Source: an uncultured Desulfobacteraceae bacterium (GTDB lineage Bacteria > Desulfobacterota > Desulfobacteria > Desulfobacterales > UBA2156). From it: DNA of 64,000 nt. Below are positions 6,968-44,003 of this stretch, piece by piece. Below the pieces are notes generated by a model. It saw only the letters and a program-made list of their open reading frames with translations. It was not told the origin of the DNA and ran no database searches. The first letter of the stretch is position 1. Each line of letters opens with the position of its first letter. The DNA lies in the NCBI GenBank assembly GCA_964596535.1, contig CAZQUR010000004.1:33-64032 (forward strand). The letters are read 5' to 3'. A program made the translations under genes and the position numbers.

Positions 6968-7004
6968 GCCATTCCTCCCATAATAAACCACAGGATGTTG
7001 CATT

Positions 7005-7020
7005 GATGTTGCGAAACATC
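7005..7020. promoter_or_regulatory. inverted repeat GATGTT-GCGA-AACATC, candidate activator-binding site
   Basis: Exact 6-bp arms. Preceded by a direct copy of GATGTTGC at 6994-7001. Lies ~180 bp upstream of the sigma-54-type promoter. Confidence 0.3.
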
Positions 7021-7080
7021 GTTTCAATTTATTTTAACTAACTATTTTAATTATAATTTACTCTATCTACACACCTCAAC

Positions 7081-7100
7081 CGTTGCATGGTTTTGCAACG
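7081..7100. promoter_or_regulatory. inverted repeat CGTTGCA-N6-TGCAACG, candidate activator-binding site (UAS)
   Basis: Exact 7-bp arms ~100 bp upstream of the TGGCAC element, a distance typical of bacterial enhancer-binding protein sites. Confidence 0.35.
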
Positions 7101-7186
7101 CTCAAAATCGCCTGAAATAGATTTACTGACCCTCCTTTTCCATTCAACCACCTGTTATCACGGTACATTTTTTCATTTTTTCTTTA

Positions 7187-7201
7187 TGGCACACTCTGTG
7201 C
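7187..7201 (+). promoter_or_regulatory. sigma-54-type promoter (TGGCAC-N5-GTGC)
   Basis: TGGCACACTCTGTGC matches TGGCAC-N5-TTGC with one mismatch. It lies 74 nt upstream of the first gene of the hdr-like operon and 220 nt downstream of a sigma-54 activator gene. Confidence 0.55.
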
Positions 7202-7274
7202 GTTTAAGTGTGCCAAAACAATCCTGATCCTCTCCGAAGTGGGCTGAACCAAACTTGACCAAGCAGAGGTCACT

Positions 7275-7745
7275 TTGAGTCCCAAGCTTGCGGAAAAAAC
7301 GATCATTATCGTTTCTGATGAACTGAATATGCGCATTTTTCTTTGCAATATTTTGGGCAGCTGCGGTTATGCGCCTGTTGATGCCGGGAGCCGTAAGGAG
7401 GGAATGCAAAAAATCAAAACCGAGAAACCGGCGCTCATCATCCTCGATGTCATGATGCCCAAAGAGAGCGGCGTCCAGATGTATCGTGAACTCATGGATG
7501 ACGAAGAGCTGAAATCCATTCCGGTGATTCTCTTGTCGACCATCGATAAAAAAACGTTCTCTTATTACCATAAATTCCGAAGTGCATCCCTGGACAATGA
7601 TTTTTTCAAACCGGGCGCCTATCTGGAAAAACCGTTTGAGGCCAACACCCTCATTTCGCTTGTAAACGGCATGGTCTCATCGGGGGAAGGCCGCATCGCA
7701 GATCCTGTAAGCGAGTCCACTCGAAAAAAGACAGGGTTGTTTTGA
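7275..7745 (+). CDS. single-domain response regulator (CheY-like receiver)
   Basis: TTG 7275 after AGAGG. Motifs IIIVSDELNMR, LIILDVMMPKESG, YLEKPF. No output domain. Confidence 0.8.
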   Translation: MSPKLAEKTIIIVSDELNMRIFLCNILGSCGYAPVDAGSRKEGMQKIKTEKPALIILDVMMPKESGVQMYRELMDDEELKSIPVILLSTIDKKTFSYYHKFRSASLDNDFFKPGAYLEKPFEANTLISLVNGMVSSGEGRIADPVSESTRKKTGLF

Positions 7746-7800
7746 AACGGCATAGGATTTGAATACACTGAACACAAACCGGAAAGAACGGTCTGATGCG

Positions 7801-10089: not shown

Positions 10090-13000
10090 GCGCATCGGAT
10101 TTTATATATGCCACTGCGGCATCAATATCGCTTACCGGGTCAGGGTTCAGGAAGTGGCCGAGTATGTGGCGAAATTTCCGAATGTGGCAATCTCAAGGGA
10201 TTACCTTTTCATGTGTTCCGATCCCGGCCAGGAACTCATTGAAAAAGATATCCGGGAGCATCATCTCACCCGCGTTATCGTGGCCTCCTGTTCTCCGCGG
10301 ATGCATGAAAAAACCTTTCGGGCGGCCTGCCAGAGGGCGGGGCTCAACCCTTACCGGACATTTCATATGGTGTGTGTGCGCGAACATGTCTCGTGGGTCA
10401 CCGAAAATGAAGACGAAGCCACCGAAAAGGCCAAAAACCTGGCCAGAGCCGGTCTCTTGCGCGTGGTGCACCAATGCGAATTGACCCCTGCAACATTTTC
10501 GGTATGCACCAATACCCTAATTGTGGGCGGAGGGATCGCCGGCATGCAGGCAGCCCTGGATGTGGCCAAGGCCGGATTCAACGCCTATCTGGTTGAGCGA
10601 CAACCTACAATCGGAGGGCACATGCTCCAATACGACAAGACCTTCCCCACCCTTGACTGCGCGGCGTGTATCGGCACACCCAAAATGGTTTCCGTGGGTC
10701 AGGAGTCCCAGATCCGGTTGCTGACGCATAGCGAAGTGGAAAACGTTAGCGGGTTCATCGGCAACTTCAGGGTCAGCGTTCGGCGAAAAGCCCGTTACGT
10801 CGAAACGAATTGCACCGGATGCGGCGAGTGTGAAAAGGTCTGCCCCATCGATTTTCCCAACCTCTGGGATGTAAACACCAAAACCAGAAAGGCCATTTAC
10901 CGGCCCTTCCCCCAGGCCGTACCGATTACCTACTGCATCGATAAATACGACCGCGCTCCCTGTGTTCAGACCTGCCCGGCCGGAACCAACGCGCAAGGCT
11001 ACGTCGCGCTGATAAAGACGGGTAAATACCGGGAAGCGTTGAGCCTGATCATGGAACGCCTGCCCTTGCCCGGCACCCTGGGTCGCGTGTGCCCGGCACC
11101 GTGTGAAGACGTCTGTCGCAGATCCGAAGTGGATGAGGCCGTCGCCATCCGCGATCTGAAGCGATTTGCGGCCGACCAGGTGGATCTTCTGGAACTGCCG
11201 CTGCCGGATATCCAGGATCGGCCGGAAAAAGTGGCCGTGATCGGATCCGGTCCGGCCGGCCTAACGGTGGCGCATTACTTGCGGCTGAAAGGCTATCAGA
11301 TCACCATTTTTGAAGCGTTGCCGGTGCTGGGAGGCATGCTCCGTGTGGGCATCCCCGACTATCGGCTTCCTCCTGAAATCCTGGATCGCGAAATTCAAAA
11401 CACACTCCGAATGGGAATCCAGGCCCAAACGAATCAGAAGTTCGGGGTCGATTTCAGTCTCGATGACCTGAGAAAGCAGGGTTTCAAAGCCATCTTCTTC
11501 GGAATCGGCGCCCACCACAGTCTGAAGCTGGGTATTAACGGGGAGGAAGAATTCCAGGGCGTGATGGATGCGGTCGATTTTCTCCGGGAAGTCAATCTGG
11601 GCAGTCCTAGGCCTCCCGGCAAACGGGCGGCAATCATCGGCGGAGGCAATGTGGCCGTCGATGCCGCCCGAGCCGCTTTGAGGACCGGCTGTGGAAAGGT
11701 GGATATCGTTTATCGTCGCAGCAGAGAGGAGATGCCCGCCTATCCGGAAGAAATCGAAGGCGCGATCGCCGAGGGCGTGAAAATCCACTTTCTGACAGCC
11801 CCGATCGCGATCCGGGGGGAAAGCGGCAGGGTCGCAGGAGTGGAATGCATCCGAACCGAGTTGGGTCCCCCTGATGACAGCGGGCGACGACGCCCTGTGC
11901 CAGTGGAGGGTTCCGAGTTTGTAATCGAGGCCGATGCGATCATTCCCGCCATCGGGCAGCAACCCGACTTTGACTGGCCTGCCGAAAGACAGATTCTGGA
12001 ACTCACGAAGCGCAAGACCATATCGGTGAATCCGCACACCCTGCAGACCAATTTTCCTGATGTATTCGGAGGCGGCGATGCGGTGAGCGGTCCGGCAACG
12101 GTGATCGAAGCGGTGGCCGCAGGCCGAAAGGCGGCAGAGGCAATCCATTCCTATATCATGGGAGAGGATATGGAAACTTACGCACAAAAAGTCGCCACCC
12201 GGGAACCGATCGGCCAAAACTGGCGAGAATTATTTAAAACCACCCTAAAGAAAGAGAGAGCCCGGCTGCCGCATCTGAATGCATCCGAAAGTGCCGCCTC
12301 CTTTGCGGAGGTGATGTCGGGTTTTGGTGAGATCCAGGCTCGCGAGGAAGCGGCCCGTTGCGTCAATTGCGGCGGATGCTGTGAGTGCAAGCTCTGCGAA
12401 AGCGCATGCGAAGCCAAAGCAATCAATCACTCCATGAAAGATGAGATAGAAGAAATAGAGGTGGGTTCCATCATCGTCGCTACGGGCTTCGATCCCCTTG
12501 ATCCAACACCGATCCGGCAATACGGATACGGTCAGTACGCCAATGTTTTTACCAATCTGGAATTCGAACGCCTGTCGAACGCCACGGGACCCACCAAAGG
12601 AAAACTGCTGAAACGGGATCCGAAGGATCGTTTTAGCTTCACCGAGTCTCCGAAGAGCGTGGCAATCCTCCATTGCATCGGAAGCCGCGATTTAAATTAC
12701 CACGAATACTGTTCGCGCACCTGTTGCATGTATGCGCTTAAATATGCCCACCTCATAAAGGACAAGTGCGGTCATGATACCGAAGTCTATAATTTTTACA
12801 TCGATATGCGATGCTTCGGCAAAGGCTATGAGGAATTCTACAAGCGCGTTCAGAGTGAAGGCGTACGGATGGTTCGCGGTAAAGCCTCCCGGGTGGAAGA
12901 GAAGGACGGTATGCTGATCGTCACCGCAGAGGATACGCTGTCCGACCGGATGCTGAAAATTCCTGTGGAGATGGTGATTCTTTGTACTGCAATGGAAGCG

Positions 13001-13462
13001 CGTCCCGATGCAAACGAAGTGGCGCGCATCTTCGGAATCAGTATTGGAAGTGACGGATTCTTCCAGGAGGAGCATCCCAAACTCGAACCGGTTTCCACTC
13101 CCACCAGCGGCGTTTTTCTCGCCGGGGCCTGCCAGGGGCCTAAAGATATCCCCGACACGGTTGCCCAGGCAAAAGGGGCCGCCGCCGAGGCCCTCGCCCT
13201 TTCCGCCTCCGGAAAGGTATCGGTTTCTCCGATGGTTTCCTCCGTTGATCCTGATATCTGTATCGGCTGTCAGATTTGCATCGACCTGTGCGCATACTCG
13301 GCAATCGAGTTCAATCCCTTGAAAGGAATCAGCGAAGTAAACGAGGCCGTTTGTAAAGGCTGCGGAAGTTGCGCCGGCTACTGCCCGAGCGGCGCCGCGC
13401 AGATTCGTCACTTTACAAGCAAACAGATTTTTGCGGAAATCGACGGGATCTTGGTCGCCTGA
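10082..13462 (+). CDS. hdrA: HdrA-like flavoprotein fused with an internal GltD/NfnB-like NAD(P)H-binding module
   Basis: ATG 10082 overlaps the upstream stop (ATGTCTGA). Motifs GGGIAGMQAALDVA; HdrA signature HCIGSRD-x8-CSRTCCMYALK; CTGCGECEKVCP, CIGCQICIDLC, CKGCGSCAGYCP. GltD-like part at ~10960-12160: GRVCPAPCEDVC, VIGSGPAGLTVAHYL, IIGGGNVAVDAARAA, VFGGGDAVSGPATVIEAVAAGRKAA. Confidence 0.9.
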   Translation: MSERIGFYICHCGINIAYRVRVQEVAEYVAKFPNVAISRDYLFMCSDPGQELIEKDIREHHLTRVIVASCSPRMHEKTFRAACQRAGLNPYRTFHMVCVREHVSWVTENEDEATEKAKNLARAGLLRVVHQCELTPATFSVCTNTLIVGGGIAGMQAALDVAKAGFNAYLVERQPTIGGHMLQYDKTFPTLDCAACIGTPKMVSVGQESQIRLLTHSEVENVSGFIGNFRVSVRRKARYVETNCTGCGECEKVCPIDFPNLWDVNTKTRKAIYRPFPQAVPITYCIDKYDRAPCVQTCPAGTNAQGYVALIKTGKYREALSLIMERLPLPGTLGRVCPAPCEDVCRRSEVDEAVAIRDLKRFAADQVDLLELPLPDIQDRPEKVAVIGSGPAGLTVAHYLRLKGYQITIFEALPVLGGMLRVGIPDYRLPPEILDREIQNTLRMGIQAQTNQKFGVDFSLDDLRKQGFKAIFFGIGAHHSLKLGINGEEEFQGVMDAVDFLREVNLGSPRPPGKRAAIIGGGNVAVDAARAALRTGCGKVDIVYRRSREEMPAYPEEIEGAIAEGVKIHFLTAPIAIRGESGRVAGVECIRTELGPPDDSGRRRPVPVEGSEFVIEADAIIPAIGQQPDFDWPAERQILELTKRKTISVNPHTLQTNFPDVFGGGDAVSGPATVIEAVAAGRKAAEAIHSYIMGEDMETYAQKVATREPIGQNWRELFKTTLKKERARLPHLNASESAASFAEVMSGFGEIQAREEAARCVNCGGCCECKLCESACEAKAINHSMKDEIEEIEVGSIIVATGFDPLDPTPIRQYGYGQYANVFTNLEFERLSNATGPTKGKLLKRDPKDRFSFTESPKSVAILHCIGSRDLNYHEYCSRTCCMYALKYAHLIKDKCGHDTEVYNFYIDMRCFGKGYEEFYKRVQSEGVRMVRGKASRVEEKDGMLIVTAEDTLSDRMLKIPVEMVILCTAMEARPDANEVARIFGISIGSDGFFQEEHPKLEPVSTPTSGVFLAGACQGPKDIPDTVAQAKGAAAEALALSASGKVSVSPMVSSVDPDICIGCQICIDLCAYSAIEFNPLKGISEVNEAVCKGCGSCAGYCPSGAAQIRHFTSKQIFAEIDGILVA

Positions 13463-13540
13463 CCGGCGAAGGCGAGAGATCTTCTTGAATCCTGAAGTAA
13501 AACGAATTCCCTGGAGCATGTAACAGAAAGGAGTTGAAAG

Positions 13541-13963
13541 ATGAGTGAGTTTGAACCGACAATTGTGGCTTTTTTTTGCAACTGGTGCACTTACACAGCC
13601 GCGGACTTAGCCGGCACTTCTCGTCTGAACTATCCCCACAACATTAGAATCATCCGGGTCATGTGCACCGGCATGGTCGATACCCAATATGTCATTAAAG
13701 CGTTTTTGGAAGGAGCGGACGGCGTGCTGGTGAGTGGATGCAATCCCGGGGATTGTCATTACATCAACGGCAATTATAAGGCCCGGAGACGGATCAAGCT
13801 TCTCAAAGAGATTCTACCCCAATTCGGTTTTGATCAAGAACGGCTTCGATTAACCTGGATCGGAGCCAGCGATGGGGTTCACCTGGCTGAGGTCATTCGA
13901 ACCTTTGTATCACAAATCAAAGCCCTGGGACCGAGCCAGACAAAACTTAAAATGGCGATTTAG
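13541..13963 (+). CDS. mvhD: MvhD-like (methyl-viologen-reducing hydrogenase delta subunit family) Fe-S protein
   Basis: ATG after AAAGGAG. Motifs FFCNWCTYTAADLAG, RVMCTGMV, GADGVLVSGCNPGDCHY. Confidence 0.85.
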   Translation: MSEFEPTIVAFFCNWCTYTAADLAGTSRLNYPHNIRIIRVMCTGMVDTQYVIKAFLEGADGVLVSGCNPGDCHYINGNYKARRRIKLLKEILPQFGFDQERLRLTWIGASDGVHLAEVIRTFVSQIKALGPSQTKLKMAI

Positions 13964-14048
13964 AAAATATAGATATCGGATTTGCCAAAATGGTTTTCAC
14001 GCACATAATCCCCATGCCGAATTTAACACCATTTCTCCGGAGGCAGTT

Positions 14049-15191
14049 ATGACCACCATGGCCAAAATCGACCTGAAGGAACAGAATCCTTTGGAAGCCT
14101 TGCAGCAGTTTTTTGCAGGCATTCTCAAACTGAAAGATGTCACGTCTATCCTGGTCCCCCAGCGGCTTCCAGCCCGAAACATGATTATGCCGACCCTGGT
14201 AACCGATGCCGCTCTCCTGGAAGGCGTTGATCCCCTTGCCCCGGCTTTCCCGATGAATGCCGCAAGAATCGCCTCCCGATTGACCCGGAAACCGATGGGT
14301 TCGAAAGTGGCGGCGGTGTTGCGCCCCTGCGAGATCCGGGCGTTCATCGAGCTGGTCAAACTGAATCAGGCTAAAAGGGAGGAGATTTTTCTCATCAGCA
14401 CGGATTGCCTGGGTGCATTTCCGAACAAAGAATACTTCATGTTTGCAGACCGGAATGGAGGAGAAGGAACCCTTGACTTTTATAAAACCATGCTGGGGGG
14501 AAACACCGGTGAAATGGAAGGGTATCCGCTGGCTCCGGCCTGCAAGGCATGCGAACATCCGATTTCCGAAAACGCGGATATTCAAATCGGTTTTTACGGC
14601 ATCAAGCCCGGCGAATCAATTCTGATCAAGTCTCAATCCGAAGCAGGAGATCGTATTTTACAGCAGATGAATCTCTCCACAACCACGGAACCAGCCGGCC
14701 GCCGGACCGCCATCGACACCCTCATCTCCCAGCGCATCCGTTACCGAGACGAAATGTTCGTCAAGACTCATGAGGCCATTGATAGCCTGGACAAGATGGA
14801 AACGTATTTCTCCAATTGCGTCAATTGCTACAACTGCCGGGTGGCTTGCCCGGTCTGTTATTGCAGGGAATGCGTCTTTGTCACAGACGTGTTCAACCAT
14901 GAACCTTCCCAGTATCTTCATTGGGCCGCCCGAAAAGGGATGATCAAAATGCCAACGGATACTCTCTTTTATCATCTCACTCGGCTGGCCCATATGAGTA
15001 CGGCGTGCGTGGGCTGCGGCCAATGTTCCAACGCCTGCCCCAATGACATCCCTGTCATGGAGATCTTCCGCACGGTGGCCCAACACACCCAGCAGGCCTT
15101 TGACTATGAAGCCGGGAAGCACCTCGAGGAAAAACCGCCTTTATCCGTTTTTCATGAAGATGAGTTTCAAGAAGTTGTGGGTATTTCATAA
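14049..15191 (+). CDS. FrhB/FdhB-family flavin-binding Fe-S protein with C-terminal 2x[4Fe-4S]
   Basis: ATG 14049 after GGAGG (ORF open from 13872). Motifs LRPCEIRAFIELV, ISTDCLGAF, CKACEHPISENADIQIGFYG (FrhB_FdhB_C-like); CVNCYNCRVACPVC and CVGCGQCSNACPND. Confidence 0.65.
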   Translation: MTTMAKIDLKEQNPLEALQQFFAGILKLKDVTSILVPQRLPARNMIMPTLVTDAALLEGVDPLAPAFPMNAARIASRLTRKPMGSKVAAVLRPCEIRAFIELVKLNQAKREEIFLISTDCLGAFPNKEYFMFADRNGGEGTLDFYKTMLGGNTGEMEGYPLAPACKACEHPISENADIQIGFYGIKPGESILIKSQSEAGDRILQQMNLSTTTEPAGRRTAIDTLISQRIRYRDEMFVKTHEAIDSLDKMETYFSNCVNCYNCRVACPVCYCRECVFVTDVFNHEPSQYLHWAARKGMIKMPTDTLFYHLTRLAHMSTACVGCGQCSNACPNDIPVMEIFRTVAQHTQQAFDYEAGKHLEEKPPLSVFHEDEFQEVVGIS

Positions 15192-15217
15192 AGCCAAAAC
15201 ACAAGGGAGATGCAACG

Positions 15218-16537
15218 ATGCCGCAAGAAGCCATTCAATTAACCCGGGAAAGACAAAGTCCCTTCATGGACAAAGTGGAAGCGCTCCTTCCGGAAGGAGG
15301 AAATCTCAATCTATGTCTGACCTGCGGGGCTTGCGTCTCAGGATGTCCGGCAAGCGGCCTGGAAGAAATGGACCCCCGGAAATTTTTGCGCATGGCTGCG
15401 TTGGGTTTGGATGACGAAATCCTGAAAACGGATTGGGTCTGGATGTGTTCCATGTGCCAGCGCTGCATCTATGTCTGTCCGATGAAGATCGACATCCCCC
15501 AGTTAGTCTATCAGGCCCGGGCGTCCTGGCCCAGAGAAACCCGCCCCAAAGGAATTCTGGGCTCCTGCGATATGGCGTTGAAAAACGATAGCTGCAGCGC
15601 CATGGGCGCATCGCCGGAGGACTTTGACTTTGTTGTCAACGACTTGCTGGAGGAATACCGGGAGGCCCAGCCCGAATTCGCCGAAATGGCGGCGCCCATC
15701 GATAAGGAAGGAGCCGAATTTTTCCTGAATCAGAATTCCCGGGAACCGGTAACCGAACCCGACGAATTGATCCCTCTTTGGAAAATTCTCCATGTCGTCG
15801 GGGCGGATTGGACCTATGGTTCCAAAGGATGGGGCGGTGAAAACTATTGCATGTTCCTGGCAGACGACTCGTCTTGGGAGCACATTGTCCGAACAGCGGC
15901 AAATCAGGCGGACGCTTTGAGGTGTAAAGTCTTTCTCAATACGGAGTGAGGGCACGTCACCTTCTCGGTCCTGGCAGGACTGAAAAAATTCAAGGTTCCG
16001 CATAATTTTATCGTCAAGAATATCTATGAATACTACGCCAAATGGATCCGCGAGGGAAAGCTGAAGGTCAACTCGGATTGGAACAAGGATCTGAAGATAA
16101 AATTTACGGTGCAGGATCCCTGCCAAATCGTCCGTAAAAGCTATGGAGATCCCATCGCCGAAGACCTTCGACTCGTGGTGAAATCCATCGTGGGAGAAGA
16201 AAATTTTATCGAAATGGAACCGAATCGATCCAACAATTACTGCTGCGGCGGCGGCGGCGGATTCCTTCAATCGGGATATAAGGACGCCCGTCTCGAGTAC
16301 GGGCGCATTAAGGACCGCCAAATCCAGGAAACCGGTGCGACATATTGCATTGCGGCGTGTCACAATTGTCACGCCCAGATTCACGAACTCAGCGAGCACT
16401 ATGGAGGAGGGTATCACGTAGTTCACCTGTGGACGCTCATTTGTCTTTCCCTGGGGATTTTGGGACCCAATGAACGGGAGTATCTTGGAGAAGACCTCAA
16501 GGAAGTCCTGGTCTTCCACCCGGAATCCGCTCATTAG
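15218..16537 (+). CDS. HdrC/HdrB-like fusion (4Fe-4S + CCG domains) with in-frame UGA read as selenocysteine at codon 244
   Basis: ORFs 15218..15949 and 16109..16537 share one frame. The only stop between them is TGA 15947-15949, and 15950-16108 is open and protein-like. Motifs CLTCGACVSGCP, CSMCQRCIYVCP, NTE-U-GH, DPCQIV...NYCCGGGGG...CIAACHNCH. Confidence 0.7.
15959..15996 (+). ncRNA. candidate bacterial SECIS stem-loop (mRNA element)
   Basis: Starts 10 nt after the UGA. Lower stem ACCUU(15959-63)/AAGGU(15992-96); upper stem GGUCCU(15967-72)/AGGACU(15976-81); G-rich apical loop GGC. Folded by eye only. Confidence 0.45.
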
Positions 16538-16617
16538 AAAGGGACAGCCGCACACCAGCATGCTCTGTGAGACAGAATATCGGAATAAGCCATACGTATT
16601 GAGTGAAAGGACGCACC

Positions 16618-19600
16618 ATGAACAGAAAAATCGGCACGGCATTAGTGGTCGGGGCCGGAATTGGCGGTATGCGGACCGCCATGGATCTGGCGGAATTCGG
16701 ATATGGAGTGACCCTGATCGACCGGGCTCCCCACCTGGGAGGCATTCTGAGCCAGCTCGATTATCAGTTTCCCACCGATCGTTGCGGCATGTGCAAAATG
16801 CTCCCGCTCATCGATCGGGACGTTTCGTCCCAATATTGCCTGCGGAAGGGTTTTACCCATGAAAATATCCACGTCTTTCTTTCCACCGAACTCATTTCCG
16901 TGGAAGGGGAGCCGGGGCGTTTCGGTGTCACTCTCAAACGAAAACAGAACTGGGTGGACCCCGCCCTCTGCGTTGGTTGCGGTCTTTGCACAGAAGTGTG
17001 CCCGGTGGAAGTTCCGGACACTTTCAACGCCGGACTGTCCAAAAGAAAAGCCATCTACCTTCCTGTTCCCCATGAGATACCGAACCCGTATATCATCGAC
17101 ATTGCCGCATGCAACCGGTGCGGAGAATGTGTGAAGGCCTGCCCGACCCATGCCATACGATTATCGGAACAGGAACGTAAAAAATTCCGTATCCTGGTGG
17201 TAGATGATGAGCTGATCGTCCGGGATTCGCTCAAGGAACTCCTTGAAAATGAAGGTTTTTTCGTCAACATGGCGGCCTCCGGAGCAGAAGCGCTGGATCG
17301 TTTGTCCGAAGCGCCATATCATCTGATGCTCACCGATATCAAGATGCCGGAGATGGACGGTGTTGAGCTTTTACAAAAAGTGCGGGAAACTTTTCCGGAT
17401 ACGACCGTGATCATGATGACGGCGTATGCAACCGTTGAAACCGCTGTGGAAGCGATGAAAATCGGAGCCGTCGACTATCTCATCAAACCATTTGAACCCG
17501 AAACCCTCATTCCCATGATTCTTAAAAAATACGAAGATTTTGAAACCGCCGGCGCCAGCCGGATAGAGGTGGGTGCGATCGTTCTCAGCGGCGGCACGGC
17601 CTACTTCGATCCCCGGAGCGGGAAAAACACCCTAGGTTACGGGATTTATCCGAATGTGATGACGAACATCGAATTCGAGAGAATTCTCAGCGGCTGCGGA
17701 CCCACCCAGGGCCGGCTCATCCGATTCGACGGCAAGCCGATCCGAAAAGCTGCATGGCTCCAGTGCATCGGCTCCCGGGACATCCAAATCGACGCCGACT
17801 TCTGCTCCAATGTCTGCTGCATGTTCGCCATCAAGGAAGCCCTGGTCGCCCAGAGACGGGCCGATGGGGATTTCGAAGCATCCATACTTTACATGGACAT
17901 GCGGACTTTCGGCAAATCTTTTCAGCGGTACCGGGACACTGCAGAGCAGGAGCACGGCGTTCGTTTTATCCGGGGACGCGTGCATTCCGTCACCCAGGAT
18001 CGCGGAACCGGAGACCTCTTGATCCGTTATGCGGATCCAGGCGGTCAAATGGTTGAAGTCGCCCAGGATGCGGTGATCCTTTCCGTCGGCCAGAGGCCGG
18101 CCACCGGATCGCAGGCGCTGGCGGACCTGCTTGGAATCCAGCTTAATCCATGGGGCTTCCATGAAAATCCTCCCTTCTCCGTCACTCGAACCTCCCGGGA
18201 AGGAATCTTTGTGGGGGGTTCGTTTTCCGGTCTTAAGGACATTTCGGATTCGGTGATCCACGCCTCTGCCGCAGCTCTCTCCGCTTCCCGAATTCTGCAT
18301 GCCTCAGGAGGCAGCTTGACACCTCAACCGTCGCCAAGCGTCGAACTCCGGGATGTAACCCGGGAATCCCCATCCCTTCTCATGACCCTTTGCACCTGCA
18401 ACGGCGCCATCCTTGACGAAACCGTCAAAGCGGCCCTAAAGACGCATTTTACATCCGATCCGGATGTGGCTCAAGTGGAGTATGCGGAACAAATCTGCAC
18501 CACTGAAGGATGGACGGGATTGTCTAAGCTCGCAAAAACTCGCCGGCCGAACCGGATTCTCATCGGAGCCTGTCTTTTCAACGGATACACCGGAAAACTG
18601 AGGGAACTGAGCATGGAAACAGGGCTCTCTTCCGCCTTAATGGAAATGGTCGATATCGGGTCTCCGGTATTTTGCGTCAAAGATGCTCCGAAAGAAAAGT
18701 ATGAGGCGACCCTGGAACGGATCCTCAAAATCGGCATCACCAGACTCAAAAATGTCGATCCCGCCCCCAAGGCGCCCACCCGTATCCAGCAGAGGGCGCT
18801 GGTGGTAGGCGGCGGCATCGCGGGCATGAGCGCAGCCCTTGCCGTCGCCGATCATGGTTATCCCGTGGATATTGTGGAACAGGACACCCAGCTCGGTGGA
18901 AATCTTTCCTGGATCAAGAAAACCATCGAAGGCCACGATACCCAGTCGCTGCTGGAAGAAACGCTTTCCCGTGTGGAAAAGCATCCGAATATCCGCGTGC
19001 ATACCGAATCCCATGTCTTGGAGGCCTTCGGACAGGCGGGACATTTTATGACGAATATTCAAAACGGCGCAAAGGAAATCAAAACCATCACGCACGGCGT
19101 TGCGATCTTGGCCACGGGTGGCATTGAAGCCCGGACCCAATCTTATGGCTACGGTACATCCGAAACCATCGTGACGCAGAAGGAGTTGGAACTCAATCTT
19201 CACGAAAACCGGATAGACGCTGCGAAGTTAAAATCAGTGGTGATGATTCAATGCGTCGACTCGAGGGAAGAACCCCGCAACTATTGCAGCCGCATCTGCT
19301 GTGTGTCGGCGCTGAAAAATGCGCTTTATTTGAAGGAAAAGAACCCGACTTGTAAAATCACCATTCTCTATCGGGATCTGATGACCTATGGATTCTCTGA
19401 AACATATTATACCCGGGCTCGACGCGCCGATATCCTCTTTATGCAGTATGATCTGGAAAACAAACCCGCCGTCGTCCAGATGGATGACGACCTCCTGGTC
19501 AAAGCGCATGAACCGATTCTCGATCGCCAAATTCAAATAGGGGCGGATCTGGTCGTTCTGGCGACCGGCATTGTGCCGACACTCCCGGTGACTCTCGCTC

Positions 19601-20034
19601 AGGTTTTCGGAGCCTCAATCGATCCGGATGGCTTTTTCCTGGAAGCGGAATCGAAATGGCGGCCGGTGGATTCCCTCAAAGACGGGGTCTTTGCCTGCGG
19701 TATCGCTCATTCGCCCCGTTCCATCACCGAATCCATCGCAACGGCGGAGGCGGCCGCCCAGCGCTCCCTTCGGATCCTGAATCAGGAAAGCATCCCGACG
19801 AGCAGGGTGACCGCCATCGTCCGTCACAGCCTCTGTAGCCTCTGCGAGCGATGTATCGAAGCCTGCCCATACGGCGCCAGGACATTCAATTTGGATCAAA
19901 CCCAGGTGCAGGTCAATTCCCTGATGTGCCAGGGTTGCGGGACGTGTGTTTCGACTTGTCCGAACGGCGCTTCGGTGTTGGAGGGATTCCGAAAACAACA
20001 GATGTTCGATGTCATCGATGCGGCGCTCATATGA
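16618..20034 (+). CDS. tandem HdrA-like flavoprotein with an embedded CheY-type receiver domain
   Basis: ATG 16618 after AAGGA. Module 1: VVGAGIGGMRTAMDLA, CVGCGLCTEVCP, CNRCGECVKACP. Receiver at 17182-17545: RILVVDDELIVRD, LMLTDIKMPEMDG, MMTAYA, DYLIKPF. Then CIGSRD-x8-CSNVCCMFAIK. Module 2 from ~18787: VVGGGIAGMSAALAVA, CVDSRE-x6-CSRICCVSALK, CSLCERCIEACP, CQGCGTCVSTCP. Confidence 0.9.
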   Translation: MNRKIGTALVVGAGIGGMRTAMDLAEFGYGVTLIDRAPHLGGILSQLDYQFPTDRCGMCKMLPLIDRDVSSQYCLRKGFTHENIHVFLSTELISVEGEPGRFGVTLKRKQNWVDPALCVGCGLCTEVCPVEVPDTFNAGLSKRKAIYLPVPHEIPNPYIIDIAACNRCGECVKACPTHAIRLSEQERKKFRILVVDDELIVRDSLKELLENEGFFVNMAASGAEALDRLSEAPYHLMLTDIKMPEMDGVELLQKVRETFPDTTVIMMTAYATVETAVEAMKIGAVDYLIKPFEPETLIPMILKKYEDFETAGASRIEVGAIVLSGGTAYFDPRSGKNTLGYGIYPNVMTNIEFERILSGCGPTQGRLIRFDGKPIRKAAWLQCIGSRDIQIDADFCSNVCCMFAIKEALVAQRRADGDFEASILYMDMRTFGKSFQRYRDTAEQEHGVRFIRGRVHSVTQDRGTGDLLIRYADPGGQMVEVAQDAVILSVGQRPATGSQALADLLGIQLNPWGFHENPPFSVTRTSREGIFVGGSFSGLKDISDSVIHASAAALSASRILHASGGSLTPQPSPSVELRDVTRESPSLLMTLCTCNGAILDETVKAALKTHFTSDPDVAQVEYAEQICTTEGWTGLSKLAKTRRPNRILIGACLFNGYTGKLRELSMETGLSSALMEMVDIGSPVFCVKDAPKEKYEATLERILKIGITRLKNVDPAPKAPTRIQQRALVVGGGIAGMSAALAVADHGYPVDIVEQDTQLGGNLSWIKKTIEGHDTQSLLEETLSRVEKHPNIRVHTESHVLEAFGQAGHFMTNIQNGAKEIKTITHGVAILATGGIEARTQSYGYGTSETIVTQKELELNLHENRIDAAKLKSVVMIQCVDSREEPRNYCSRICCVSALKNALYLKEKNPTCKITILYRDLMTYGFSETYYTRARRADILFMQYDLENKPAVVQMDDDLLVKAHEPILDRQIQIGADLVVLATGIVPTLPVTLAQVFGASIDPDGFFLEAESKWRPVDSLKDGVFACGIAHSPRSITESIATAEAAAQRSLRILNQESIPTSRVTAIVRHSLCSLCERCIEACPYGARTFNLDQTQVQVNSLMCQGCGTCVSTCPNGASVLEGFRKQQMFDVIDAALI

Positions 20035-20269
20035 AAGAAGGCCCGGCATGATCCGGATCGCAAGCCCTTCGATTCTTGGGGAGACGGCCTTTCCATCCTC
20101 AACGGACCCGTCAGAAGATCCTCAGGAATGGGAAGATCGCGGATTCGATTCGGAACCTCTACGGCGTTTCTTTCCGTACTTTCGGCAATGACGCTGCCCC
20201 CCGTGATATGCGGCGTCTGATCTTTTCTTCGGGGTCATTCCCCTGAAAACAAAAACCGGGGATGTGAAA

Positions 20270-22588
20270 ATGTTGACATGGCTGAAAAACATCCGTCACA
20301 GACTCGCGGCAAAACTGATCGTCATGATGGGAATAATTCTTGTCGGCAGCTTCAGCGTCTGGGCTCATTATAATCTCAACTTTCAGAAAACCAAATTGAT
20401 GGCTTACACCATAGAAAGCACGGACCGCCTTACCAATACCATCAAACTCGGCGCCCATTATTCCATGATGTCCAACAGCCGTGAAGATATCAATCAGATT
20501 ATCAAAAACATTTCAACGCAACCCGAATTCGAGCAAATCCGCATCTACAACAAGGTCGGGCAAATTAAATTTTCCAACAATTCCTCAGAGATCAACCAAA
20601 CCACCAACATCCGGAATGAGGCCTGCATCATTTGCCATCAGACGGATCCGCCGAGAACTCAGGTCGGTCTTTCCGAAAGAATACGGGTGCTCGATTCAGA
20701 CAAGGGCTATCGCATCCTCGGAATCATCAGCCCCATCTATAACGAGCCCGCTTGTGCTAGTACCGATTGTCACTTTCATCCGGAGGAAAAAAAGATTTTG
20801 GGCGCTCTGGATGTCGTGATTTCCCTGGAAGCACTCGATCAAGAAATTGTCCGGGCTGAAAAGAACTTCGTCGTCTTTTCGGTAGTCGTCTTCACCGTGA
20901 CGTCCACCATAATTTTTCTCTTTGTTCTAAAGTTCGTCAACCAACCCATTAAAAAGATGATCAACGGCGCCAGGCGAGTCGCAAAAGGGGAATATTCCAG
21001 AGCCATTGAGATCGAACAAATCGATGAAATGAGTGAACTTGCCAACGCCTTTAATCATATGTGCAAAGAAATCCTCAAGCACGAAACCGAACTGAAAGCA
21101 AAGCAACGGGAATATCAAAATCTTTTCGAGTCGGTTCCATGTTTGATCACGGTGCAGGATCGGAATTTTACGCTCCTGAATTACAACCGTCAATTTTCCG
21201 ACATGTTCAACCCCACTCCCGGGGACTATTGTTTTCGTGCGTACAAGGGGCGCAACCAAAAATGCGATCCCTGCCCGGTGGAGGAGACATTCACCGATGG
21301 ACAATCGCACCACACCGAAGAAAGCGGCCCGGGAAAGGACGGAACCGTTCGATCCTGGATCGTCAGGACCTCCCCGATCGTTAACGAGAATGGCGAAATC
21401 GTCGCGGCCATGGAGATTTCCCTGGATATTACCGAGAGAAAAAAGCTCGAGTTCGATCTCTTAAAATCCGAAGAAAAGTACCACGCCATCTTCAACAACA
21501 TCCCGAACCCGGTTTTTGTATTGGACGCGGACAATTACGAAATCCTCGATAGCAATAAAAGCGTGAATACCGTTTATGGCTATGAAACGCATGAACTGCA
21601 GAATCTCCCCTTCTTAATTCTCTTTCCGGAAAAAGAAAGGATACATTATTCCTTCAAGCTGGCGGCGTCCCACATCCTCGATCGTGTCAAACAGATCCAT
21701 AAAAATGGAAAGGTCCTGTATGTCAACATTCGCATCTCCCCCTCCGAGATTTTAGAGAAAAAGGTGCTGCTGGTGACGACCAGCGATATCACCAAGCGTC
21801 TTGAAACCGAGCAGCAACTCATACAGGCAGGAAAAATGGCCACTCTCGGAGAAATGGCAACCGGCATCGCCCATGAACTCAACCAGCCCTTATCGGTCAT
21901 CAAGACCGTGAGCAGTTTTTTCATCGACAAGCTCCGGAGGAAAGAACCCATCGAGGAAAAAACCCTTTCTACCATGCTGACCAAGGTGGACAGCAATGTG
22001 GACCGAGCCACCCGGATCATCAATCACATGCGACAGTTCGCAAGAAAATCCGAAGTGGAGTTGGAAAGGATTCGGATCAACGATGTCATCCAAAACGCGT
22101 TGGAAATTTTCAGCCAGCAGTTGAAGGTCAAAGGCATCGAAATCGTACAACGGCTCGATCCCCAATTGCCTTCCATCCTGGCAGATCCCGGAAGGCTTGA
22201 ACAAGTGATCATCAATTTATTGGTCAATGCGCGGGACGCCATTGAAGAAAAATGGAACAGCACAGGTCGCCGGCAGGAAAAAGAGAGTATCGAACTGATC
22301 ACGCGGTACGAAAAAGAGCAAGCGGTCCTGGAAATCATAGACAGCGGGATGGGAATCCCTGAGGCCTTTTTGGAAAAGATCTTCGAACCCTTTTTTACCA
22401 CCAAGGAAGTGGGAAAAGGCACGGGTCTCGGCCTGTCCATCAGTTACGGGATCGTCGCGGAGTGCGGCGGCAAAATCGAGGCAAAAAACGTGAACGGCAA
22501 CGGCGCCTGCTTTATCCTGCGGTTTCCTGTTACAAAGGTCGAAAAATCGGATCCGCGTTTCAAGTATCTTCCACGTGTCGGCGGATAA
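20270..22588 (+). CDS. sensor histidine kinase: periplasmic domain with c-type-heme-like motifs, HAMP, two PAS, HisKA/HATPase
   Basis: ATG 20270 (GTG 20264 also in frame). TM-flanked ~180-aa domain with CIICH (20624-20638) and CASTDCH (20753-20773). H-box [38 protein letters not shown]. Confidence 0.9.
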
Positions 22589-22600
22589 AGGGCTTTATCG

Positions 22601-23746
22601 GTGGCTCAAACAGAAAAAAGCCAAACCATTTTACTCGTCGACGATGAAGAGGATATCCGGGACGTCCTGAACCTGGCCCTTTCCAGTTCCGGATACGATG
22701 TCCTAACCGCGAAGAACGGCGTCGAGGCCCTCCAGATTTTTACACAAACGCATCCACCCATCGTGTTGACGGATATCAAGATGCCCGGGATCATCGACGG
22801 TATCGAGCTGCTTCGGCGCATCAAAAATGAGAATCCGGATACCGAGGTCGTCATGATCACGGGTCATGGTGATATGGATCTGGCCATCCAAAGCTTGAAA
22901 AACGAGGCCACCGATTTCATCACCAAGCCCATTAACGTGGAAGCCCTCAAGGCGTCTTTGCAGCGGGTGGAAGAAAAAATCCTCATGAAGAGAAAGCTTC
23001 TGGAATACACCCAAAAGTTGGAAGCTTTGGTCCTGGAAAAGACGGAACTTCGGGATCGACTATCCTCCTTGGGCCTGATGATCGGCTCCATCTCCCACGC
23101 GATGAAAGGTCTGTTGACGAACCTGGATGCCGGTCTTTACCTTCTTGATTCTGGGATTTCCAAAAACCGTACGGAGCGGTTGAAGGAGGGGGTGGAAACG
23201 GTCCGGCAGACCGCCGGGCGCATTAAAAAACTGGTTCTGGATATCCTTTTTTATGCCAAAGAAAGGGAACTCAAAATCCGGTCCACGGCTATCGAACCCT
23301 TTGCGAATGAAGTGGCGGACATCATCGAAAACAAGATCAAGGAAAAACCAATTGAACTGGTCCGCAGTTTTAAGGCCGCCCCAAAGTCGTGGATGATCGA
23401 CCCCGATTTTCTCCGCACGGCCCTGATCAACGTCCTCGAAAATGCCGTAGATGCCTGTTGTGAGGACCCGGAAAAACCTTCCCATGAAATCCGATTTACC
23501 GTTGAGGAAAAAGACGGAGAACTCCTCTTCAATATTCTCGACGACGGGCCGGGTATGGACAGCGGCACCCTGGAAAAGGCGTTCAATTTATTTTTCTCCA
23601 CAAAAGGCCCCAAAGGGACGGGCTTCGGTCTTTTCATTACGGATAACATCATCAAACAGCACGGGGGTCGGATTCAGGCCCATTCTTCAAAAGGGAAAGG
23701 CACCCAGCTCTGCATCCGGATTCCTTTTCCGGAATCGAATCCCTGA
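22601..23746 (+). CDS. hybrid receiver-histidine kinase
   Basis: GTG 22601. Receiver ILLVDDEEDIRD, VLTDIKMPG, FITKPI. Kinase IGSISHAMKGLL, NVLENAVDA, DDGPGMD, GTGFGLF. Confidence 0.85.
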   Translation: MAQTEKSQTILLVDDEEDIRDVLNLALSSSGYDVLTAKNGVEALQIFTQTHPPIVLTDIKMPGIIDGIELLRRIKNENPDTEVVMITGHGDMDLAIQSLKNEATDFITKPINVEALKASLQRVEEKILMKRKLLEYTQKLEALVLEKTELRDRLSSLGLMIGSISHAMKGLLTNLDAGLYLLDSGISKNRTERLKEGVETVRQTAGRIKKLVLDILFYAKERELKIRSTAIEPFANEVADIIENKIKEKPIELVRSFKAAPKSWMIDPDFLRTALINVLENAVDACCEDPEKPSHEIRFTVEEKDGELLFNILDDGPGMDSGTLEKAFNLFFSTKGPKGTGFGLFITDNIIKQHGGRIQAHSSKGKGTQLCIRIPFPESNP

Positions 23747-23757
23747 ACCAAAATTCG

Positions 23758-24114
23758 TCAACCCTTGGAAGAATGCAGCTTTTTATGTTCGCAGGCGGCA
23801 TTCATCTTGATGAGCAGTTCTTCAAACGTCACCGGTTTGATGAGATAGTCAAAGGCCCCGTATTTCATTCCTTCGATGCTCGCCTCGAGAGACGCATGAC
23901 CGGTGAGCATGATCACCTGGACATCGAAACGGATCTTTTTGATCTCTTTAAGGGCCTCGATCCCGTCCATGCCGCCGGGCAGCTTGACGTCCAGAACGAC
24001 GATGTCACAGGCGTTTTGCTTCAAGAACGCCAAACCTTCTTCTGCGCTGGTCACACCCGTTGCCTTCAGCTTGCGGCGGCACAATCGGTTGACGATCGTT
24101 TCAAGAAAGTCCAC
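23758..24114 (-). CDS. single-domain response regulator; true start probably upstream of the first canonical start codon
   Basis: Motifs VVLDVKLPGGMDG, IMLTGHAS, DYLIKPV. The frame stays open upstream of GTG 24114 and encodes ...FFRVLIVDDE, the conserved receiver N-terminus (compare paralogue 31183-31617, MGTFSVLIVDDEIDF). Confidence 0.75.
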   Translation of the reverse strand: MDFLETIVNRLCRRKLKATGVTSAEEGLAFLKQNACDIVVLDVKLPGGMDGIEALKEIKKIRFDVQVIMLTGHASLEASIEGMKYGAFDYLIKPVTFEELLIKMNAACEHKKLHSSKG

Positions 24115-24172
24115 TTCGTCATCGACGATCAGTACGCGAAAAAAATTTATCGGATGTTCTCCCTTCCGGCGA

Positions 24173-25834
24173 TTAGCGCTTTTCGGGCATGGTTACCGGC
24201 AGTCGTACCGTGAAGGTGGTTCCTTTCCCTTCCCGGCTTTCAACACGGATCTGCCCCCCCATCTTCTCAAGAATAGTATGGCTGATGGAAAGACCCAGGC
24301 CGGTGCCCTTTCCTCCCGGTTTGGTCGTATAAAAAGGGTCGAAAATATTGCTCAACTGGGATTTTGGAATCCCCGGCCCGTCGTCCCGGACATCGACTTC
24401 AATGAATTCTCCGACCCGCCGGGTGATCAGTTCAATATTCCCGTCCTTTCCAATGGCATCAATGGCGTTGTCGATGAGATTCAAGAAGACTTGCTGGAGC
24501 TGGGATGGATCACCGGCGATGACCGGCAAGTCGGATTCCAGATTGCGGTGAACTTCGATGTTATTGATCCGGGCGTGGTTTTGCAACAGTTCCATGGTCT
24601 GGGTGAGAACCGCGTTGATGTTGACCTCGCCCAAATGGGGTTCCATCCGTCGTGCAAACCCGAGCACGTTGTGAACGATCTTTCGTACCCGCTCCACGTG
24701 TTCTTCGATTTTTTCGATGGATTTTTGATATTCTCTCAGATTTTCGCTCTTCTGAAATTCTTCTTCGGAGAGCAGGTCCCGCATCCAACTCGCCTTTTCA
24801 CCGATAACGGCAATCGGATTGTTGACTTCATGGGCGATCCCCGCCGCCATTTTTCCCAGCGCCGCCAGCTTATCCGTTTGCAACAGGTGAGCACTGAGTT
24901 CATCCATCTTGATGTGGGCATCTTCAATTTTTCTGACCGTGAAAGTGGTAATGACATAGGTGACAAGTACGATCAAAACCAGGCCGGCCGAAATGATGAG
25001 AATCCCGAGGTTTCGCGTCACCAGCAGGGAATCCATTTCTTCATCGATTTCCTGGGTGATGATCAGGAGCCAATCCGTATTCTTGACCCTGCTTCCGGCC
25101 ATGAGCAATTTTCTTCCCTGGGGGTCGATATGCTCGATGACGGACGTCTGCCCGCCGAAACGGTTCGTGTCGATGCCGGACTCCCAGAGTACTTCCCCGT
25201 AAAAGCGCGGCCGTGTCTGATAGATTCCGGCCCGGTTCACGATAAAGGCGTCCCAGGTCTTCCCCACTTTGGCACCGCGGACAAGGTTCCTCAGCGCATC
25301 CGGATCGATGGTGGCCCTGAGAATCCAGGAGTCTGCATTCTCTGAATGGCGTACTGCGATGACGAAATGCGGCAACCTGCGGAACCCCATGAACAAATCG
25401 CTGATATAAACGCCCTTGGCCATCACCTCATCGAACCAGGCTTGTTCACTGTATATCCGGCCCTTCAAATCGTACGGTCCGACATAGGCCTGGTGAAGCC
25501 CGTCGGTATCGATCACTCCCAGGTCAAGGAACGCACCGACCCGGCGGTTCATCCGCTTCAGCAGTTCGGCTAAAAATGTTTCCTGGAGGACGGCCTTGTA
25601 CGACTGGGTATCCACAAGGGTAGCGAGCATGGCAACCCGCTTCTTCAGAAAAAGATCCACCATCTCCGCCTGTGCTTCCGCCCGGTAACGAATCTGCTCC
25701 TCCACTTTCTGCCGATACATCTTGGCAAACTGGACATAGAGCGTCCCTCCTAAAATGAGCAAAGGAATGAAAGCCACCAGCACCGTCAGGAGGATCAATC
25801 GGAATCGAAGCCTTTTGAAAATCTTTTGTTTCAT
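24173..25834 (-). CDS. membrane sensor histidine kinase with large extracytoplasmic domain
   Basis: N-terminal TM (LILLTVLVAFIPLLILGG), ~260-aa extracytoplasmic region, second TM. H-box [40 protein letters not shown]. Confidence 0.9.
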   Translation of the reverse strand: MKQKIFKRLRFRLILLTVLVAFIPLLILGGTLYVQFAKMYRQKVEEQIRYRAEAQAEMVDLFLKKRVAMLATLVDTQSYKAVLQETFLAELLKRMNRRVGAFLDLGVIDTDGLHQAYVGPYDLKGRIYSEQAWFDEVMAKGVYISDLFMGFRRLPHFVIAVRHSENADSWILRATIDPDALRNLVRGAKVGKTWDAFIVNRAGIYQTRPRFYGEVLWESGIDTNRFGGQTSVIEHIDPQGRKLLMAGSRVKNTDWLLIITQEIDEEMDSLLVTRNLGILIISAGLVLIVLVTYVITTFTVRKIEDAHIKMDELSAHLLQTDKLAALGKMAAGIAHEVNNPIAVIGEKASWMRDLLSEEEFQKSENLREYQKSIEKIEEHVERVRKIVHNVLGFARRMEPHLGEVNINAVLTQTMELLQNHARINNIEVHRNLESDLPVIAGDPSQLQQVFLNLIDNAIDAIGKDGNIELITRRVGEFIEVDVRDDGPGIPKSQLSNIFDPFYTTKPGGKGTGLGLSISHTILEKMGGQIRVESREGKGTTFTVRLPVTMPEKR

Positions 25835-38985: not shown

Positions 38986-39039
38986 GGATTCTTTCATTCA
39001 ATCACCTTTCCCTTGCCCATTCGATCAAAGGCATCGGTC

Positions 39040-39777: not shown

Positions 39778-39813
39778 CCCATCGGGCTTGCACGGCCCGG
39801 TAGTAAGGGACCC

Positions 39814-43750: not shown

Positions 43751-44003
43751 GGAAATCATCGAAAAAATAAACACGGCGTTGGCCGGGGAATTCGAGCTGG
43801 ACGAGGCGTCCATGGTGCCTGAGGCGCATCTTTTCGACGACCTGGAACTCGACAGCCTGGACCTGGTGGACATGGTGATTGTCCTGGAGCAAACCTTTGG
43901 ATTTAAAATCCGGGAAGAAGAAGAAATCCGCAGCATCCGGACCCTGGGAGATATTCACGCCTTTGTCATCCGCAAGCGACACCAGAGACTTCAAAGTTCC
44001 TAA
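43740..44003 (+). CDS. acyl carrier protein (ACP 1)
   Basis: GTG 43740 overlapping the KS stop. Phosphopantetheine site DLELDSLDLVDMV. 87 aa. Confidence 0.8.
   Translation: MTDKEIIEKINTALAGEFELDEASMVPEAHLFDDLELDSLDLVDMVIVLEQTFGFKIREEEEIRSIRTLGDIHAFVIRKRHQRLQSS

Follow-up and report, generated by a model that had tools for sequence, protein, structure and literature searches.

We report a CheY-type receiver (REC) domain embedded in a tandem flavoprotein related to HdrA, a subunit of heterodisulfide reductase (Hdr). The protein, here called REC-HdrAA, is encoded by one gene in a 64,000-nucleotide stretch of DNA (the window) from an uncultured Desulfobacteraceae bacterium (contig CAZQUR010000004.1). 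An earlier note on the window had drawn attention to this gene. It suggested that phosphorylation of the receiver might control electron flow. We conclude that the receiver-HdrA fusion is real, ancient within its lineage, widespread and strongly constrained. We also lean slightly towards a mechanism in which phosphorylation of the receiver would gate electron flow through an Hdr/BamE-type complex.

Two sets of relatives were used for comparison. The homologues are the best 120 matches in a collection of 5.8 billion proteins. The loci are 84 fetched genomic regions, 80 of them from species-representative genomes, encoding proteins 52–100% identical to the query. The gene and its parts are listed below; 5ODC is the structure of Methanothermococcus HdrA.

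16618 to 20034, + strand: REC-HdrAA, a fused-dimer HdrA-type flavoprotein with an embedded receiver (stop-free translation of 1138 amino acids; Pfam and NCBIfam matches)
16618 to 16932, + strand: first part of the module 1 thioredoxin-reductase-like flavin adenine dinucleotide (FAD) domain (residues 1–105; GxGxxG and invariant C56-G-M-C59; matches 5ODC_A from residue 146)
16933 to 17175, + strand: inserted ferredoxin domain with two [4Fe-4S] motifs (residues 106–186; aligns to 5ODC_A up to residue 312)
17176 to 17547, + strand: receiver domain and short linkers (residues 187–310; phospho-acceptor D240 at 17335–17337)
17563 to 18297, + strand: remainder of the module 1 FAD domain (residues 316–560; C383, C396, C400-C401 and K406; residues 316–507 equate to 5ODC_A 319–510)
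18364 to 18792, + strand: module 2 HdrA N-terminal-type domain (residues 583–725; invariant C592, C594, C627 and C652)
18793 to 19797, + strand: module 2 FAD domain, lacking an inserted ferredoxin domain (residues 726–1060; CVDSRE..CSRICC and K900)
19798 to 20034, + strand: C-terminal 2x[4Fe-4S] ferredoxin domain (residues 1061–1138; Fer4_10 and Fer4_7 matches)

Translation, Pfam and the 120 homologues all support an uninterrupted open reading frame (ORF) for 1138 residues with a receiver inside a tandem HdrA-like flavoprotein, as first described in the note. The ATG at 16618 agrees with the N-termini of homologues; the mechanically defined ORF opens five codons earlier, at a GTG (16603). Pfam identified Response_reg, three stretches of Pyr_redox_2 and four of Fer4 in the protein. 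These matches, from the kind of domain scan that the note had proposed, confirm the domain order. The FAD Rossmann fold and the two 4Fe-4S motifs expected ahead of the receiver are present, and their cysteines are invariant. The inserted ferredoxin domain has two CxxCxxCxxxC motifs (C118/121/124/128 and C165/168/171/175), with all eight cysteines invariant. The HdrA cluster signature that the note placed after the receiver is present, with CIGSRD at residue 383 and CSNVCC at 396. The equivalent motifs in module 2 are CVDSRE (879) and CSRICC (890).

Both halves of the protein carry a GxGxxG FAD fold and the [4Fe-4S] motif CxGSRD...C...CC, and both align to 5ODC. The first half consists of the FAD domain, inserted ferredoxin domain and receiver but lacks the HdrA N-terminal and C-terminal ferredoxin domains. 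The second half consists of the N-terminal domain, an FAD domain with no insert and the C-terminal ferredoxin domain. Each half therefore holds domains missing from the other. Hence, the halves are complementary and together make up one fused HdrA dimer. The original description of two HdrA-like modules in tandem stands, but neither module is complete; the arrangement is that of BamE, described below. In particular, the second module had been taken as a complete HdrA running from about 18787. It begins at residue 583 (position 18364) and has no inserted ferredoxin domain.

Alignment to solved structures places the receiver precisely. Residues 8–184 equate to 5ODC_A 146–312 and residues 316–507 to 319–510. 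Since the flanking residues match near-contiguous parts of 5ODC_A, the receiver and its linkers are a clean insertion. At the insertion site, the chain has just left the inserted ferredoxin domain and is about to rejoin the first thioredoxin-reductase-like FAD domain. Relative to tandem HdrAs without a receiver, which align across the gap, the insert is about 125 residues. Further along, residues 583–741 align with 5ODC_A 2–160, the HdrA N-terminal domain. Residues 959–1134 align with 5ODC_A 469–647, the C-terminal part including the C-terminal ferredoxin domain. We built an AlphaFold2 model from the alignment with the 120 homologues. Overall, its predicted local distance difference test score (pLDDT) was 77 and its predicted template modelling score (pTM) was 0.77. 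The closest structures to this model in the PDB, searched with Foldseek in a library that does not include BamE, were HdrA chains (E=3.5e-42). Among NCBIfam models, HdrA2 and HdrA ranked top, each matched in four stretches, and many receiver families ranked next. The HdrA/HdrA2 equivalog cut-offs were missed by a wide margin (656 bits versus 1100; 550 bits versus 1400). Judged by these comparisons, REC-HdrAA is related to methanogen HdrA but is not its equivalog. Homology, and the presence of K406 where the lysine of a bifurcating FAD is expected, suggest that REC-HdrAA may catalyse flavin-based electron bifurcation.

The receiver itself is intact. Response_reg (PF00072) matches residues 192–301 (positions 17191–17520; E=4e-32) across profile positions 1–110 of 111, scoring 111.1 bits against a curated cut-off of 30.2 bits. 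In the AlphaFold2 model, residues 191–309 form a regular (beta-alpha)5 fold with pLDDT of about 84. The motifs listed in the note are all where it placed them: VVDDE (residue 194), TDIKMP containing D240 (17335–17337), MMTAYA (T268) and LIKPF (K290). Thus the acidic pair, phospho-accepting aspartate, threonine, aromatic switch and Lys-Pro of classical receivers are all found. Residues D196, D197, E198, D240, G248, T268, A269, Y287, K290, P291 and F292 are invariant in 120/120 proteins. At the six key receiver positions, all 84 loci encode D-D-D-T-Y-K. The note had pointed to degeneration of active-site residues as a reason to doubt its proposal. We looked for this on alignment and saw none in the 120 proteins or 84 loci, which rules out a degenerate receiver for the REC-HdrAA family.

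Conservation of the receiver extends beyond its active site. Consensus identity is 0.845 across the domain in the 120 proteins, and only the first Rossmann segment of the protein is more conserved. When 127 sequences with identities as low as 43% are compared in 12-residue windows, conservation across the protein peaks at residues 266–277 (MMTAYATVETAV), in beta4-alpha4 of the receiver. Helix alpha4 is 96% conserved in the same sequences. The alpha4-beta5-alpha5 face is the customary output and dimerisation surface of receivers.

The fusion is widely distributed. The 120 homologues are 1130–1159 residues long, cover the whole query at 61–85% identity and have PF00072 in every case. They are labelled 'response regulator', 'FAD-dependent oxidoreductase' or 'heterodisulfide reductase subunit A' in databases. 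Using family patterns, we also scanned one genome per species. At least 599 stretches matched, of which at least 589 encode relatives. The best 80 of these are full-length, 52–74% identical to the query and all have the receiver; they come from Desulfobacterales, Desulfatiglandales and Syntrophobacteria-type genomes. All 84 loci are Desulfobacterota-type. This phyletic survey, another step put forward in the note, placed the receiver at the same site in the best 120 homologues and in 84/84 loci. Carriers include Desulfospira joergensenii DSM 10085, Desulfobacterium sp. N47, Desulfatirhabdium butyrativorans, cultured Desulfonema magnum and the Delta 3 and Delta 4 symbionts of Olavius gutless worms (loci L033 and L057). 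Closed chromosomes are among them (CP061800 and CP070746). One further receiver-containing member, P0308, is annotated from 'Desulfobacteraceae bacterium Eth-SRB2'. Sulfate reducers with syntrophic and symbiotic lifestyles thus carry the family, and expression data may be available for them.

To place the insertion, we searched representative proteins clustered at 50% identity. The top ranks are taken by seven full-length receiver-containing clusters, at 43–51% identity. The next-ranked representatives include many tandem HdrAs of about 1000–1030 residues that have no receiver and align straight across the gap. In a rough neighbour-joining tree of the HdrA parts, receiver-containing proteins cluster, with receiver-less P0133 nested inside. 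This grouping tentatively suggests a single insertion event in one Desulfobacterota lineage. A different architecture is seen in P0147 (1217 residues), where three N-terminal receiver domains precede an HdrA-type module. Hence, fusions between receivers and HdrA apparently arose more than once.

We next consider the signalling genes that accompany REC-HdrAA. Neighbour counts refer to related loci with enough flanking sequence, which number 53 for the stand-alone receiver and the enzyme genes upstream of REC-HdrAA and 52 for the other genes. REC-HdrAA is the final enzyme gene of an hdr cluster, and kinase genes are next downstream.

20264 to 22588, + strand: membrane histidine kinase (Pfam; order of parts: transmembrane segment, periplasmic c-haem sensor, transmembrane segment, HAMP, PAS, PAS, HisKA, HATPase)
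22601 to 23746, + strand: soluble REC-(HisKA-like)-HATPase hybrid kinase (Pfam; weak HisKA match with H-box SISHAMKG; 30/52 loci)
7275 to 7745, + strand: stand-alone receiver at the head of the hdr cluster, start codon uncertain (Response_reg, E=1e-13; 36/53 loci)

An orthologue of the membrane kinase is encoded within 10 kb in 38/52 loci with a receiver-containing HdrA. Transmembrane segments at residues ~14–36 and 201–226 of the kinase flank a 165-residue outside domain (residues 37–200). This domain matches PF21563 (Mcp40H-20_sensor), a PAS-like c-haem domain of Geobacter type, at 28.3 bits; the cut-off is 27. A CxxCH motif is present in 42/42 orthologues and CxxxxCH in 36/42. The periplasmic domain is probably a sensor of redox state or of a small ligand. 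Upstream of the cluster are a REC-PAS kinase and a PAS-sigma-54 activator that carries PAS in place of REC. Among the loci, a PAS-sigma-54 activator is linked in 19/52 and an additional REC-PAS kinase in 13/52.

The note had described a locus flanked by kinases and orphan receivers, and Pfam supports this. Of the four kinases that it named as possible partners, those at 20264 and 22601 are consistently linked to the fusion. The kinase at 3573 is present in only about one quarter of related loci; for the dCache kinase at 24173, these loci yielded no orthologue. Within the conserved cluster, receivers are never fused to DNA-binding domains. Hence, the flavoprotein is the sole non-kinase output attached to a receiver, which favours a signal passing to the enzyme.

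We then compared clusters without the receiver. The closest receiver-less relatives (P0271, P0272, P0296 and P0273) are 50–54% identical to the query outside the receiver. They sit in the same arrangement of HdrL, MvhD, FrhB-like protein, tandem HdrA and HdrC/CCG (HdrD); on the short contig of P0273 (locus L088), orthologues of HdrL and MvhD were not within reach. Gene tables, and tblastn with the window proteins, revealed no kinase, REC-kinase or stand-alone receiver within 7–10 kb of the receiver-less HdrAs (0/4). For the kinase, linkage is thus 0/4 versus 38/52 for loci with the receiver (Fisher one-sided p=0.008, uncorrected for shared ancestry). In this small sample, receiver insertion and signalling-gene acquisition go together.

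The enzyme genes upstream of REC-HdrAA encode likely partners of the protein.

7759 to 10089, + strand: HdrD-like protein with two ferredoxin-type cluster motifs and two CCG domains (Pfam; 13/53 loci only)
10052 to 13462, + strand: HdrL-type subunit, an HdrA with an NfnB/GltD-like NAD(P)H module (Pfam; 48/53 loci)
13541 to 13963, + strand: MvhD-type [2Fe-2S] adaptor (PF02662 FlpD, E=4e-54; 51/53 loci)
13872 to 15191, + strand: FrhB/FdhB-like iron-sulfur flavoprotein (Pfam; 51/53 loci)
15218 to 16537, + strand: HdrD-like (HdrC plus CCG) protein of 439 residues, very probably containing selenocysteine (in-frame UGA at 15947–15949)

REC-HdrAA is thus genomically associated with MvhD and HdrB/HdrC-type CCG subunits, as in HdrA systems. 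In alignments with PDB entries, residues 10–298 and 774–1133 of the HdrL-type subunit match HdrA and residues 300–780 match NfnB/GltD-like proteins. The NfnB/GltD-like module (residues ~300–773) splits the inserted-ferredoxin domain about 15–20 residues before the site used by the receiver in REC-HdrAA. The surface region of HdrA at these insertion sites seems to tolerate and recruit additional domains. About 90 nucleotides of the FrhB-like ORF lie within the end of mvhD. Orthologues of the encoded protein have 376–383 residues, some 60 fewer than the ORF would give. The true start of the ORF is probably about 60 codons downstream. An 'HdrC-like' ORF and a short CCG ORF are one frame broken by a lone TGA, with read-through giving ...CKVFLNTE-U-GHVTF.... 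The identical in-frame TGA, with conserved flanks, is kept in nine related loci. Hence, the UGA very probably encodes selenocysteine. A hairpin lies 3' of the UGA, and its stability is unexceptional (z=-1.28).

We also scanned positions 7000–24500 for promoters and terminators. Numbers of sites were not above chance, and no plus-strand terminator was found between the REC-HdrAA gene and the kinase. A search with the strict sigma-54 promoter consensus gave no match. Using a relaxed sigma-54-like pattern, which was not enriched over chance across the window, we noted two sites. A perfect GGCAC-N6-TGC resembling a sigma-54 -24/-12 element lies at 7188–7201 (+ strand), between the PAS-sigma-54 activator (ending at 6967) and the stand-alone receiver. 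A sigma-54-like match with one mismatch lies upstream of the kinase at 20184–20197. Elsewhere in the window, an unrelated cluster at 39013–48287 (+ strand) encodes a short-chain dehydrogenase, two beta-ketoacyl synthases, an amine-oxidase-type flavoprotein and an MMPL-family transporter. It looks like a cluster for lipid or polyene-type biosynthesis.

BamE, of the class II benzoyl-CoA reductase of Geobacter metallireducens, is a useful comparison. Briefly, BamE is a fused HdrA dimer with domain permutation. Its first FAD is bifurcating, and low-potential electrons leave via the inserted ferredoxin domain, as in HdrA; BamE/HdrA complexes operate via large domain movements (cryo-EM preprint, bioRxiv 10.64898/2026.04.10.717634). 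Like BamE, REC-HdrAA is a chain of about 1000 residues with two thioredoxin-reductase-like FAD domains, permuted and complementary accessory domains and an inserted ferredoxin domain in the first half. The equivalence of individual residues was derived by arithmetic rather than alignment. On this basis, the N-terminal CxxC pair is C59/C62 in BamE and C56/C59 in REC-HdrAA. The lysine after the first-half CC motif is K280 in BamE and K406 in REC-HdrAA, or 281 after subtraction of the 125-residue insert. In the second half, REC-HdrAA has K900 where BamE has Gln768. For both proteins, the partners include an MvhD-type adaptor and an HdrBC/HdrD-type CCG subunit. However, BamE has no receiver, and the partners of REC-HdrAA are instead HdrL and an FrhB-like protein. 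Genes for BamB/BamC (tungsten AOR-type), BamGHI and NuoEFG/HydABC-type proteins were absent from the cluster, the scanned parts of the window and the related loci inspected. The lack of BamBC and BamGHI rules out membership of a class II benzoyl-CoA reductase.

Methanogen HdrA (MvhAGD-HdrABC, 5ODC; Elp-Hdr, 8RVY; Fdh-Hdr-Fmd, 7BKB) is the best match in sequence and fold to all parts of REC-HdrAA other than the receiver (E=4e-115). It shares the FAD fold, the CxGxRD...C...CC cluster motif and the ferredoxin domains. Methanogen HdrA is a homodimer of chains of about 650 residues with four domains each. Conversely, REC-HdrAA is one chain in which the domains are divided between the halves and a receiver is added.

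We propose the following mechanism for gating by phosphorylation. A soluble, BamE-like electron-transfer complex of the Hdr type, probably electron-bifurcating, would have REC-HdrAA as its core flavoprotein. The other subunits would be HdrL (for NAD(P)H input), MvhD, the FrhB-like subunit and HdrC/HdrB-type CCG proteins. A canonical receiver would have been inserted once, at the exit from the inserted ferredoxin domain and so at the presumed exit for low-potential electrons. The receiver would be a working phospho-acceptor, with D240 phosphorylated by the co-inherited two-component module. The phosphate could come from the c-haem/PAS/PAS membrane kinase, directly or via the soluble REC-kinase hybrid. 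Phosphorylation would alter the alpha4-beta5-alpha5 face of the receiver. The altered face might reposition or lock the adjoining ferredoxin domain, which is the low-potential branch. Alternatively, it might drive receiver-receiver association of protomers. In either case, electron flow through the complex would be switched on or off at the protein level.

Phosphorylation of D240, the identity of the kinase, the effect on electron transfer and the substrates of the complex are all inferred here from sequence. The suggestion of the note that phosphorylation gates electron flow gains from the co-conserved kinase and from the absence of signalling genes in receiver-less clusters; it stays conditional. 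A narrower version is that the c-haem sensor kinase phosphorylates the receiver in the bifurcating half and so directly gates flavin-based electron bifurcation at the protein level. This is quite possible, though if pressed we would sooner doubt it.

Several points weigh against gating by phosphorylation. The co-occurrence test rests on four receiver-less loci and ignores kinship. In 14/52 loci with a receiver-containing HdrA, cultured Desulfonema magnum among them, there is no nearby kinase. A divergent branch, outside the family as defined above, retains the insert with a degenerate active site. Finally, sequence does not give the direction of signalling; conservation of the phospho-site and linkage of the kinase would also fit signals that pass the other way.

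In this reverse arrangement, the flavin/iron-sulfur enzyme would be the sensor, and its redox or turnover state would alter gain or loss of phosphate by the receiver. The protein would then be a redox-dependent phosphate sink or branch point that tunes a relay of kinase, REC-kinase and stand-alone receiver, and thereby also further targets. A cluster with three receivers and two kinases is typical of branched relays with sinks. The PAS-sigma-54 activator (19/52) and REC-PAS kinase (13/52) that adjoin the cluster in some loci could be read in the same way. However, no transcription factor containing a receiver is linked, and the enzyme is the only evident downstream output of the relay. Furthermore, the kinase has sensors of its own, the periplasmic c-haem domain and two PAS domains, and so an additional sensor is unneeded. 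Conservation also peaks on the output face of the receiver, as expected if the receiver drives something. We consider signalling in this direction unlikely.

Less likely still is a receiver that is never phosphorylated. It might act as a spacer, or as a docking surface keeping a partner subunit close to the ferredoxin domain. Receiver folds are frequently reused as interaction modules, and some carriers have no nearby kinase. The divergent branch mentioned above bears on this directly. It comprises P0132 (1155 residues) and P0139 (a 503-residue fragment), which have a receiver-like insert at the identical site. In this insert the acidic pair is gone, the threonine is replaced by glycine or alanine and, in P0132, the lysine by histidine; the phospho-aspartate position is retained. 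These proteins look like a pseudo-receiver lineage. Hence, full phospho-chemistry is not required for the domain to persist, suggesting that its role is partly structural. Against a receiver that is never phosphorylated, six catalytic and switch residues are invariant across the 120 proteins and 84 loci, at 52–100% identity, and this is difficult to account for without phospho-chemistry. In addition, kinase and receiver genes accompany the insertion and are missing from receiver-less clusters. An assembly or frameshift error, with the receiver in truth a separate gene, can be dismissed with near certainty: we looked for such an error and found none, the same unbroken architecture recurs in 120 independent database proteins and in 84 loci of different genomes, closed chromosomes included, and a domain lying between two halves of one FAD domain cannot be a separate gene.

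Gating of an enzyme by an attached receiver has parallels. CheB, PleD/WspR, RpfG and RssB-type adaptors share with REC-HdrAA a receiver with the DD-D-T-K residues, an aromatic switch, a linked histidine kinase and an output that does not bind DNA. There are two differences. The output of REC-HdrAA is a flavin/iron-sulfur redox enzyme, and its receiver lies inside a catalytic domain, whereas that of the other proteins is an N-terminal module.

A cluster of similar content has been described previously. In hdr locus VIII of Desulfobacterium autotrophicum HRM2, hdrL is beside hdrA4, mvhD, an FdhB-type gene and hdrC/hdrB, and genes for a response regulator, a histidine kinase and a CheY-like regulator are also present (Strittmatter et al. 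2009, PMC2702500). By its described gene content, locus VIII looks like the REC-HdrAA cluster. The main text of that paper (PMC2702500) makes no mention of a receiver inside HdrA4. Full-text searches returned no published description of a fusion between HdrA, or heterodisulfide reductase, and a receiver; most subscription journals lie outside the literature searched. The author of the earlier note was likewise aware of no characterised example. That holds as far as we found, but the fusion is not rare, with relatives in at least 589 species-representative genomes. It is already in databases under generic automatic names and, as far as we found, has apparently not been analysed before.

Anaerobes use flavin-based electron bifurcation as a central means of coupling energy. 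Discussion of its control has centred mostly on gene expression or thermodynamics. To our knowledge, how cells switch electron-bifurcating enzymes on, off or into reverse is largely unknown. An intact phospho-site beside the low-potential exit, together with a kinase resembling a periplasmic redox sensor, makes a case for fast post-translational control. If correct, this would be the first control of an electron-bifurcating enzyme by aspartate phosphorylation. It would link extracytoplasmic redox state to cytoplasmic energy coupling without transcription. The repertoire of response-regulator outputs would widen to iron-sulfur flavoenzymes. Carriers are widespread among marine and subsurface sulfate reducers and related bacteria, including symbionts, partners of alkane-oxidising archaea and cultured strains. 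In these organisms, if our interpretation is right, a signalling pathway would switch an enzyme of energy metabolism directly, rather than the genes encoding it.

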